From positions 34,658,001 through 34,722,000 of the forward strand of contig OX597814.1 of NCBI GenBank assembly GCA_951406725.2: a stretch of DNA of 64,000 bases. Reading direction: 5' to 3'. The number at the start of each line of letters is the position of its first letter. Position 1 is the first letter of the stretch. Positions 15,147 through 40,108 of the stretch are shown in pieces. The position numbers were made by a program, and so were the translations under genes. The notes under the pieces are model-generated. The model was not told the origin of the DNA. It was given only the letters and a program-made list of their open reading frames with translations, and did no database searches. The stretch comes from Octopus vulgaris. Taxonomy: Eukaryota.

Positions 15147-15277
15147 ATTTATTATATAGAAGGAGCTTCTACAGGACTAGTACTGTTTCATTCAAGAGAA
15201 ATCTTCAGGAGCTTCCTGAAGATTTCTCTTGAATGAAACAGTACTAGTCCTGTAGAAGCTCCTTCTATATAATAAAT
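15147..15277. repeat. Palindrome with perfect 64-bp arms and a 3-nt centre (GCT)
   Basis: 15147-15210 is the reverse complement of 15214-15277. Confidence 0.95.
15207..15263 (+). ncRNA. Type I hammerhead ribozyme motif (C3-G8 core)
   Basis: AGGAGCTTC-CTGAAGA-tTTCtcttGAAt-GAAA-CAG-tactagtc-CTG-TA-GAAGCTCCT. Perfect 9-bp stem I, 4-bp stem III, GUA triplet with cut after 15254. Stem II is weak (U-U at 10.1/11.1). Confidence 0.7.
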
Positions 15278-15396
15278 TAATTTTACTCTGCTATGTATTG
15301 AGTACCTTACTTACTGTGGTTAACCCCGAATCAACCCGGGACCTACATATATATATATATATATATATATATATATATATATATATATATATATAT

Positions 15397-15600
15397 GACC
15401 TCGTGTGTACCGTTGGGGATTTTTTTCCCTCTGCCTTCCCTTCTCTGGATCTTTCCTTCTCCTATGTTTCCGACGAAGAGCTCCGCTCGAAACGTTAAAC
15501 CCTCCCTCTTTCCTTCTTTCCTGAGCGTCCAATAATACTATATTTGTTCCACGTCCTCGCGTTGTGTTTTTTTTTGTGCTTTCTTGTTTGGATTAACTTT
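15397..15600 (+). mobile_element. Short (TA)n-embedded PLE-type repeat with minimal hammerhead motif at 15466-15500
   Basis: GTTT-CCGACGA-a-GAGCtccGCTC-GAAA-cg-TT-AAAC, with U4C in the core and palindromic ACGT stem III. Related sequence at 40937-41025 (minus) and, more weakly, 22340-22540. Confidence 0.6.
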
Positions 15601-17499
15601 ATATATATATATATATATATATATATATATATATATATATATATATATATAGAGAGAGAGAGAGAGAGAGAGAGACAAGGAAAGAGAGAGCGGCAGTGGG
15701 AGAAATTATTTCGCAAATTCTCATCATAGGGCTCATAATATACAACAATCAAAGATAAATATTATATAAAATATTTTCATATAAATGAGTTTTATACACA
15801 AATATTAATATTCAAATATTTACCGTATCCCTTTTAACGTAATCACCTGCATTTTAACGATAATTAATTCTCAATACACATTTATATATTCAGATATATT
15901 CACCTATATACAGAACATATGCATAACCGCAGGTTACTTGATATTTGAGATGTAATTCAACATTTTTACTAATGCTTTCTCAGTCCAATGAAGACATTTA
16001 ATGTCCATTATATATTTCGCTCATTTTATATTGATATTTTGAATTATTATATTACGAATATTTACACCAGTAAACTATGAAAATCTTATGCACCGGAAGT
16101 TTTCCTCATAATTTACAGAGAATGATCATATAAGTAACTATTTATATTTCATTTTGATGCGAATAGTGGAATCACTAAATGGTTTCCATGGGCTGGTTAT
16201 ATTTCATATATAATTCAGGAACGGGTGTAAAGTACGACACATTTGACAAAATTATGTTTCAAGAGAAATTGTGAATGCATATAAGAATACATTTATCAAT
16301 ACATATAAAGAGGAAGCGTCACGTATATAAATATATATTTACTAGATTTTATACATATTTAATTTCTATTAAATCACCTTCTTTGATCATAATGTAATTT
16401 ACTGTCTGAAGTTTGTTAAAAGTATTCAGTTAAAATTACACGAAGTTAAATATCAGTTAAATAGGCTCATACACATGTTATACATACATAAACTCTAAGA
16501 AAGCTATAAGATGATGCACATGCACCCAGCTCTGACTGCAACACAGAGTACGAACGACAGAGAAAATTAAGAGGTGAAAGAAATGTGTTTCCAACAGCTG
16601 TTTCTGGGATCTCGGAGATTTATCATAAAGTTGTGGTAGATGTAGTTTGTCCCAATATGCGGTCATAATGGAAACAATCAACATTGGATAAGACGAGCCT
16701 CCGACATCAGGATAGTAAATGTTCATAAATTTTAAATCTTAATGCAGAGAGGTTAAGTAAGTAAGTAAGTAAGTTAGTGAGTGAGTGAGTGAGTGAGTGA
16801 GTGAGTGAGTGAGTGAGTGAGTATGTATGTATGTATGTATGTATGTATGTATGTATGTATGTATGTATGTATGTATGTATGTATGTATGTATGTATGTAT
16901 GAATGTATGTATGTATGTATGTATGTATGTATGTATGTATGTATGTATGTATGTATGTATGTATGTATGATGCACAACACACTATTCAGTCAGGAAGACT
17001 AAACTAAATTTAAATAAAAGTCTGGCTGCGTGAGACATAAGAATGAAGCCACATTTCTTGTACGATTTTGCTGCATAGGGACGATTTTATTGAACGGTTT
17101 TTTGTTGGTCAGTCTTCTGAGAGGACGCATACACATACACAGATATACACACAGAAACACACACACAGAGACACACACACGGGAACCGAGAGACACACAC
17201 ACACACACTTGCACATACATACACACATACACATATATACACACGTACACATATGTACGCTCGCATTCACACCAGACACACATATGCGGGAACTAGTAAT
17301 CTAAATAAAATACTTTTAGACTTATCTACGTTTTACATATTTCACGTATTGTGGATTACATTGAGTTGTGTATATATACTATATAATTAACTACCGTGAT
17401 TGACTAATATATTATATGCACGCCAGAGACTTGTATATAATGGAACCAATTTCTGTCTGCAATTCTCTATTCAAACGTAAACCATTGTTAAAAAAAAAA

Positions 17500-37899: not shown

Positions 37900-39930
37900 G
37901 AAATTCAACTTAGATTAACTTAGATGTGTTCAGGCCAAAATTGGACCAGGCCATGTATAACTTAATAGTACTACCTGATCGAAATGGTAAACCATTAAGT
38001 CGTGTTCTTTGGCATCATACCAATTCAAGTAGATATTTGTTGGTGACTGAAATGCAGCCAAGTATTAATGGCTTCTTTTGTATCCCTTAAAGAAAATTGT
38101 CCAGAAATCGTTTGGACATAACAGAATATTTTCCTTCTTTGATTTGTTATGGGATAAAACTAGACTGAGTAGGGCTTGTAGAGGAAAAGTAACTGTGTTG
38201 CAGTATATTTATGTGTTGTGCGCCTGATTTGTGTAACGGACAAATGGAAAAGTTCTCAGACTTGGATGAATTTTAAACTTGATGTTAAGGTAGTTTCGTG
38301 TCATATTCTCCAAATTGTGAAAATGTTATAACAGTCACGGCAGCGTTGGGGATGAGAGTGTTTCAATCTTTGAATGTGGTCCCAATAGTCAAGATCAGTC
38401 ATGCCATATAGTTTTCTTTTCTATAATTGTTCTCTAGTGTGCCTCAATTCTCATAATGTTTTGTTTTAGAATGAGGAGTCCACAAGTGACAATAGTATTA
38501 TTAGTGTGACCGTACAAAGGAGAGGAACACAAGGATGACACAAGGAAAGTTCTGAGGATCTATGAGCTGATTGTGAGATCCATGTTAACTTTATTGATGA
38601 TGTGAGCACTCCAGATGAGGCTGTCTTCAACAATTACTTCAAAGTCTCAAATAGTTTTGGATGCCATGAGTGTTTCCAAATTAAATGAGTTTAAATTTTC
38701 CCTCATTTAATGACATGCTGTTTTTACCAGCACGTTGACATCAGCATGTTGATCAGACTAGAATTTTGTTCGGTCTTTTCCACTGGCAAGCTTTTGAAAA
38801 TTGGTGTCTGTTTATATTGATTATAAAGGGAAGTGAGACACACAATCACTTGAAGAACATCACTGGTGACTTTCGCTGAGCTTAAGTGGATTCCATTGAT
38901 CATACCATGTTGGGTTCTGTTACCTACGAAATACTTGATACCGTGCTGTAATTTTCCACGGATTCCGATGTCGGATAATATTACAGGATATTGTGGGTGA
39001 CATTGTTGAAGGATTTGTTGAAGTCAAGATATACAACAACAAAGTTCGAGCCCTTCCCAAAACTTAAGGATGTCATTAAAGTTGTGTAGAAGAAATGTTA
39101 GGTTGTGTTTGATGCAACGAAAGCTATGTTGGTTGGAAGTTCAGAGATTGTTGCATGCCAGAAATCAGTTATTCTTCATCTCATAATCAGAGTGAGATTT
39201 GGTGATAGTTAATACTGTGTAACGTGTTTCCTTTTTCGAAAACTGTGATGACAAAATAGTATTAAAATATTTGGCTATGCAACCTGAGTCTAAAAACTTT
39301 TTACAAAGTCATCAGAACACTTGCAATGAATCAATCAAAGTCTGTTGCAGAATAATGATTGGCTTTGTTTAATGCTACAATGATGTCTGACGAGGTGAAA
39401 GTTATTTCGGAGATGATATATTGGGGGATAATTTCATTGAAATAGCCTAAGTTAACCACAGTGGGAAGACAGAGCGATATTGTCTCAGCATGACCTCCGT
39501 CATTTCTTCAGCATCCTGTGAGAGAATGTTATCTATCAGCGTTCCTATGTTTGTTGACAAACGAACAGAACAATTTCAGTTATGTTTGATTATTCAATAA
39601 CAAATCTCCTTTAGAAGCCCATTGCTTGTTGATTTATGCTTTCATGCGGTTCTGCAAATGATATTGTCTCAACTCAAGTGCTCTTATTGCGCTTCATTGC
39701 GGATGCTTTTAGTAGTAGTATTTTAATTGATTAATTTTTTTTATGGAGTCTTTTGACATTCTGATAAGTGTTTTGTTGTCTCTTGGGAGCCTACTTTCGT
39801 TTGTGTTTATGAGTGTTGTTGGAGCAGTGTTATGAACATGTATTAGTGACAGTGTACTCAAATCACTGCCAAGTTGTTCAAATATCAAACAAAGTGTGAA
39901 TGAATTATCATTCGTCATTCTACTTCGTAA
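37900..39930 (-). mobile_element. Decayed CR1-type LINE ORF2 (RT and C-terminus)
   Basis: Minus strand: NQHSFRCIKHNLTFLLHNFNDILK..GSNFVVVYLDFNKSF at ~39150-39005, and RKLYGMTDLDYWDHIQRLKHSHPQRCRDCYNIFTIWRI at ~38420-38305. Confidence 0.8.
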
Positions 39931-40070
39931 AGATCGAGGTACACTGCCGTGACACATACATATTGGATGCACTACCGTGGGGCATACATACATATATGTA
40001 TGCATATATATGTATGAGGAAAATAAGACAAAGTAGAAAATACTAAAATAATTTTATCATAAAGAATATT

Positions 40071-40108
40071 TTAGTACCGGTTTCAGTCATTGCGACTTTT
40101 TCAACTTA
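40071..40108 (-). ncRNA. Minimal type I hammerhead motif with U3-A8 core variant
   Basis: Minus strand: TAAG-TTGAAAA-AGTC-gcaat-GACT-GAAA-ccgg-TA-CTAA. 4-bp stem II, palindromic ACCGGT stem III, GUA triplet; stem I is weak. Confidence 0.55.

Follow-up and report, generated by a model that had tools for sequence, protein, structure and literature searches.

Hammerhead-shaped motifs with family-fixed core pairs, very probably in the 3' ends of Penelope-like elements, in the Octopus vulgaris genome

The window considered here, a stretch of 64,000 nucleotides (nt) of the Octopus vulgaris genome (assembly GCA_951406725.2, contig OX597814.1, positions 34,658,001 to 34,722,000 of the forward strand), contains a series of short repeats with motifs shaped like the hammerhead ribozyme. 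They are very probably minimal type I hammerheads located in the 3' ends of Penelope-like elements (PLEs) from several families and of what are likely non-autonomous elements derived from these, copied into (TA)n tracts, with a pair at core positions 3 and 8 that is fixed separately in each family. Eight sites had been pointed out in a sequence-only reading; seven of them have the hammerhead shape and are members of repeat families of up to thousands of copies, while the site at 4326 (site g) was not confirmed. The features, with sites and families designated by letters and U4C or A6U denoting a changed core letter, are as follows:

15147..15345, plus strand: hairpin insertion of family a, composed of an inverted arm (15147-15209) and a forward unit of ~140 nt
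15207..15263, plus strand: hammerhead a, core CUGAAGA at 15216, C3-G8, predicted cut after A17 at 15254
15398..15598, plus strand: family b unit of ~200 nt, core CCGACGA at 15470, C3-G8, U4C
18189..18907, minus strand: site c, older copy of a G3-C8 PLE with 3' untranslated region (UTR) and hammerhead, core at 18352 reading G3·G8
19019..19273, plus strand: inverted, broken open reading frame (ORF) fragment of the site c PLE copy (linker/endonuclease region), 61% amino acid (aa) identity to locus L209
19784..19905, plus strand: member of family h, a canonical C3-G8 hammerhead family; the window copy (19817) lacks U16.1
22340..22545, plus strand: decayed member of the A6U (CUGUNGA) PLE family, core region at 22426, absent from the sequence-only reading
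22700..23011, plus strand: site d, 5'-truncated 3' end of a young G3-C8 PLE, flanked by (TA)n tracts
22820..22869, plus strand: hammerhead d, core GUGAACA at 22827, predicted U17 at 22862
23568..23712, minus strand: member of the small family e, canonical C3-G8 core CUGAAGA at 23694, stem II of ~70 nt
40016..40295, minus strand: site f, 5'-truncated 3' end of an older PLE, core UUGAAAA at 40104, U3-A8

The features of type I hammerheads, i.e., three stems together with G5, A9, G12-A13-A14, A15.1-U16.1, and H17, are present in families a, b, c/d, e, f, and h, and are incomplete at site g and in the window copy of family h. Hammerhead a has a stem I of 8-9 bp, a stem II consisting of U10.1·U11.1 plus 3 bp, and a stem III of 4 bp; the forward unit of this family starts at stem I and finishes with a tail of ~65 nt. 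In hammerhead d, a stem I of 7 bp is accompanied by a bulged G, a stem II of 5 bp, and a palindromic stem III of 6 nt, and in hammerhead f the proximal stem I has 2 bp and stem III is the palindrome ACCGGU. Fold computation for the d monomer gave stems I and II with the core open; for two copies, the palindrome in stem III provides the pairing. A strict descriptor applied to the window alone recovered only site d, most sites being missed on account of a short stem I or a long stem II. No hammerhead family occurs among the 150 Rfam matches listed out of 320, which are microRNA (miRNA)-like repeat matches only.

Copies were counted across the 2.8-Gb assembly by exact-flank patterns, with reversed patterns as a control, and core letters of families a, b, c/d, and the A6U family were tallied in the first 100 matches listed. 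Exact-flank matches numbered 389 for family a, 8,007 for family b, and 7,079 for family c/d, compared with none for the reversed pattern in each case; DNA searches gave 2,027 candidates for family f and at least 504 for family h, and seven matches of family e were found in 1.494 Mb. The latter sample, made up of the window, its 200-kb neighbourhood, and dispersed 10-kb stretches, was also scanned without any constraint on positions 3 and 8; the sequence-only reading had proposed a scan in which the two need only pair, and had named dinucleotide-shuffled sequence as a comparison. The scan yielded 46 motifs, a density not matched by local dinucleotide shuffles (1.8 motifs per shuffle, 10 shuffles), and positions 3 and 8 pair in 39 of them (30 C-G, 5 U-A, 4 G-C, and no A-U); none of the seven mismatched cores was seen twice. 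One G-C and one U-A motif, both singletons, may be chance matches, and about two of the 46 are expected by chance; site g, which lacks C3 and GAAA and is single-copy in the ~2.0 Mb examined, would also agree with a chance origin in AT-rich, repeat-rich sequence. As a general explanation chance is extremely improbable, given the excess over shuffles, the thousands of copies against none for reversed patterns, and the constant place of the motifs behind PLE ORFs, and it is ruled out for all sites except g.

A Watson-Crick pair at positions 3 and 8 (C-G, G-C, or U-A) is the majority state in each family. The C-G pair occurs at 15216, 15470, 19817, and 23694 (99 of the 100 tallied matches of family a and 12 of 12 retrieved copies of family h), the G-C pair in the family of 22827 (95 of 100 for family c/d, with C3-G8 in none), and the U-A pair in the family of 40104. 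Three non-C-G families were found in the genome, the G-C PLE, the U-A PLE, and a 362-nt tandem repeat, and in all of them positions 3 and 8 still form a Watson-Crick pair. The claim that the two positions change together thus stands at the level of the family, where the pairing is fixed, and fails for site c, whose core reads GUGAAGA (G3·G8). Sites c and d belong to the same family (80% identity) and the older subfamily of site c reads GUGAACA at L118 and in the consensus of contig loose ends, so the mismatch is a private mutation of this copy. Further canonical C3-G8 minimal hammerheads of other families lie at L077:7370-, L086:1207-, and L253:6492-.

The G3-C8 motif is located ~1 kb 3' of a PLE ORF. 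At locus L209 a stop-to-stop frame of 1,025 aa with reverse transcriptase (RT) motifs, a CX3CX2C linker, and a GIY-YIG domain (Pfam E 1.8e-5) is followed by a 1-kb UTR and then by the hammerhead motif. Pfam gave no RT domain for this frame, and the RT was assigned by its motifs and a named homolog; the closest named relative of the recovered protein is an Octopus vulgaris RT-domain protein of 58% identity, and no solved structure matched the ORF profile. In 30 loci of the family, the ORF end was reached on the same strand within 1.5 kb in 12 and in inverted orientation in three, and 27 of the 30 end sharply in (TA)n, as the predicted (TA)n targeting would have it. L214 carries a short partial tandem of the 3' end ahead of the 5' UTR, copy c in the window, an insertion with its 5' part inverted, has retained the ORF fragment at 19019-19273, and head-to-head pairs account for 16 of the first 100 d matches listed. 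Loop II differs among the d subfamilies and the core is constant; contigs of four public runs have variants of at least 5% at three loop II positions and at one stem position where the wobble is kept, and none in the core. Sites c and d are truncated 3' ends of full-length autonomous PLEs, not mini-elements.

The same applies to site f, the 5'-truncated end of an autonomous PLE. PLE endonuclease-like coding lies upstream at 10 of 25 loci of its family, as broken fragments only, and the core UUGAAAA was found in 21 of the loci by regular expression and in two more by eye, the remaining two having U4C and G8, respectively. A further U3-A8 hammerhead, with an ACGCGU stem III, is present in the head-to-tail non-coding 362-nt repeat (L220:3200-4900 and L221:7300-8600, also L108 and L112), which is inserted in (TA)n with inversions and is retrozyme-like.

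According to the sequence-only reading, the blocks were ribozyme-bearing mini-retroelements. In its broad form, with every block an independent non-autonomous mini-retroelement or retrozyme, this is improbable, since the G-C, U-A, and A6U families continue upstream into RT/GIY-YIG frames; for c, d, and f it is ruled out by these frames. It may hold for family a and perhaps for family b, only 15207 (retrozyme-like) and possibly 15466 looking non-autonomous. Upstream of family a only the inverted arm is found, in 25 of 25 loci (one being the window and two overlapping) and in 18 of 20 further matches. At L303, short non-coding units of this family, 154 and 157 nt long and each with a type I hammerhead, stand head to tail, which makes the family retrozyme-like; this is one tandem locus, most copies being hairpins. 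The units at L303:1-321 have a spacer of ~15 nt missing from the dispersed copies, and L303 is possibly a master locus. In family b, the sequence common to 25 loci reaches no further upstream of the core than ~90 nt. PLE coding was detected upstream in 1 of 53 matches of family b, 0 of 9 of family e, and 1 of 72 of family a (overlapping loci included). The sequence-only reading was right about the kinship to PLEs and retrozymes.

The 3-8 covariation is not the only change in the core, since U4 and A6 also vary family-wide. They are kept in families a, c/d, e, f, and h; in family b, position 4 is C in 61, U in 38, and A in one of the tallied matches, and the motif at 15466 reads CCGACGA, so the three cores CUGAAGA, GUGAACA, and UUGAAAA do not cover all sites as had been stated. 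Yet another PLE family, with A6U (CUGUNGA), has 7,663 exact-flank matches (reversed control 0), with U6 in 94 and A6 in one of those tallied. Its locus L288:693-3968 (also L289; tandem spacing ~4.47 kb) contains a frame of 1,092 aa with RVT_1 (E 1.4e-7, above the cut-off) and a weak GIY-YIG, followed by CUGUUGA. Many copies keep long frames, and the family is young and autonomous; it shows 22% identity to the G-C PLE, and the 3' end of family b is related to it. Both U4C and A6C have been reported to lower hammerhead activity (PMC3088659).

Not all of these cores look fully catalytic, and it is conceivable, if not the favoured explanation, that the motifs are catalytically dead relics, acting as a protein-binding or folding signal or merely inherited, in which the paired swaps are old and selection is gone. 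The prevalence of A6U in a family with intact ORFs and of U4C in family b would fit such relics, as would the report that hammerhead mutants leave in vitro insertion unblocked (PMC11167929). Opposed to this are the Watson-Crick 3-8 pair kept by all three non-C-G families, the constant core beside a loop II that varies among subfamilies, and the A6U family itself, in which position 7, the free position of hammerheads, is the only one to take all four letters. The hammerhead-shaped RNAs likely cut themselves.

The general features have precedents. Hammerheads in PLEs, targeting of (TA)n, folding as dimers, and the occurrence of U3-A8 in nature have already been published (PMC4209133, PMC3088659, PMC8557442). 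The PLE minimal hammerheads of Cervera and de la Peña (2014, PMC4209133) are likewise of type I, with an extra base between A9 and stem II and a palindromic stem III, lie in PLE terminal repeats, occur mostly as solitary truncated copies and in opposite-strand pairs, and include a natural U3-A8 family with ~1,300 hits in Schistosoma; in contrast, neither the text nor two supplement files of that paper contain an octopus or a family with G3-C8, A6U, or U4C. Perreault et al. (2011, PMC3088659) described natural U3-A8 covariation, U10.1·U11.1, U4C in a viroid, and A6C of low activity, but as rare single examples, whereas the octopus variants are fixed in families of thousands; the passages covered do not name G3-C8 or A6U. 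With Neptune/Nematis-type PLEs (Craig et al. 2021, PMC8557442) the octopus elements share an RT followed by a CX2-5CxxC linker (present in L209 and L288) and GIY-YIG, as well as insertion into (TA)n, truncation at the 5' end, partial tandems, inversions, and a one-sided tail, although the tails are 30-40 nt there and ~60-65 nt here (families a and d); a Zn finger in the linker is also described there.

Truncation, partial tandems or inversions, the one-sided tail, and a hammerhead in the terminal repeat are all found in the octopus elements, and a single ORF with RT and C-terminal GIY-YIG is found in the G-C family, whereas families a, b, e, and h yielded none. Both family a and the family of 362-nt repeats resemble metazoan non-LTR (long terminal repeat) retrozymes (PMC7229834; bioRxiv 10.64898/2026.07.22.740005) in being short and non-coding with a type I hammerhead; family a differs in consisting mostly of hairpin insertions starting at stem I. 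For a lizard PLE, partial rescue by C3G/G8C, protein-assisted cleavage, and transposition independent of cleavage have been described (PMC11167929), and G3-C8 is mentioned as a tested variant in PMC3884650. The literature search, judged mostly from listings, gave no natural G3-C8 or A6U family and no octopus PLE hammerhead; Lünse et al. 2017 and Arkhipova et al. 2017 lie outside its coverage and may already list such variants. Known PLE biology accounts for most of the finding; what is modestly new is the occurrence of G3-C8 and A6U as family-wide cores.

In the mechanism proposed, the PLE GIY-YIG endonuclease would nick AT-rich or (TA)n DNA, and priming by the RT would take place on RNA that has not been cleaved, at either of two positions close to the 3' end, giving the one-sided tail. 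Early stops of the RT or its fold-back may then leave the truncated or hairpin copies of 130-300 bp that include the ribozyme. Because the copies retain the entire ribozyme, the template would have been uncut or re-ligated, and cutting by the ribozyme may require a dimer formed by tandem copies or the assistance of protein. Masters with U4C and A6U were also amplified thousands of times, so that cleavage is probably weak or dispensable; amplification thus needs no canonical core. The double swaps would have been fixed in a few master elements, likely because selection keeps the 3-8 pair.

Related PLEs in metagenomes point in a similar direction, the 69 loci including 13 with C3-G8 and 10 with U3-A8, the latter largely from one or two families, and none with G3-C8. 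Three weaker hits are mismatched at 3-8, and inspection by eye added another U3-A8 at L309. Odd cores also occur behind metagenome PLE relatives, U3-A8 with C at position 9 at L305:2497 and A3·G8 at L362:1736. The RT tree, built from 13 of the 69 loci with single longest alignments only and without reference clade sequences such as those of Neptune/Nematis, does not separate the G-C element from its nearest relatives and therefore does not give the direction of the swap.

Several points weigh against catalytic selection on family-specific pairs in PLE ends. G3-C8 in this genome is a single lineage: three matches and no second family came from a generic pattern that combined G3-C8 with ACGYGU as stem III. 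Copies within one family are not independent, and the independent swap events are so few that the evidence for selection on the fold is only suggestive. Families b, e, and h yielded no link to an ORF, and the family-wide U4C and A6U weaken the case for catalytic selection on core letters.

Other features of the window include more long hairpin-like stretches at 19593-19749 and 23175-23298, flagged only by miRNA-model matches, which are possibly fold-back insertions of other elements. A tRNA-SINE-like repeat (short interspersed nuclear element) with a 21-nt duplicated head lies at 20196-20430 and is a putative octopus SINE. There is also an inverted repeat pair of 223 nt with 99% identity (32841-33063 and 34325-34547) and a 489-nt tandem duplication (54358-55331).

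As the general phenomenon is known, the gain is incremental and extends it without adding a new system. It bears on the search for hammerheads, as CUGANGA-based descriptors, already suspected of missing part of the set, miss thousands of copies, namely most of those with G3-C8, with A6U, and in the U4C majority of b, three families that each exceed 7,000 exact-flank matches. For the role of PLE hammerheads, left open in earlier work (PMC8557442, PMC11167929), young families with intact ORFs and different fixed cores provide test pairs in which swaps that keep the 3-8 pair can be set against changes expected to cripple catalysis. More speculatively, nature may have run a mutational scan of the core of PLE hammerheads within one animal genome, with recently active lineages fixed for G3-C8, U3-A8, U4C, and A6U and cutting as dimers or with the PLE protein. 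If so, G3-C8 and U6 would join the active cores that occur in nature, and the function of PLE hammerheads could be tested directly.

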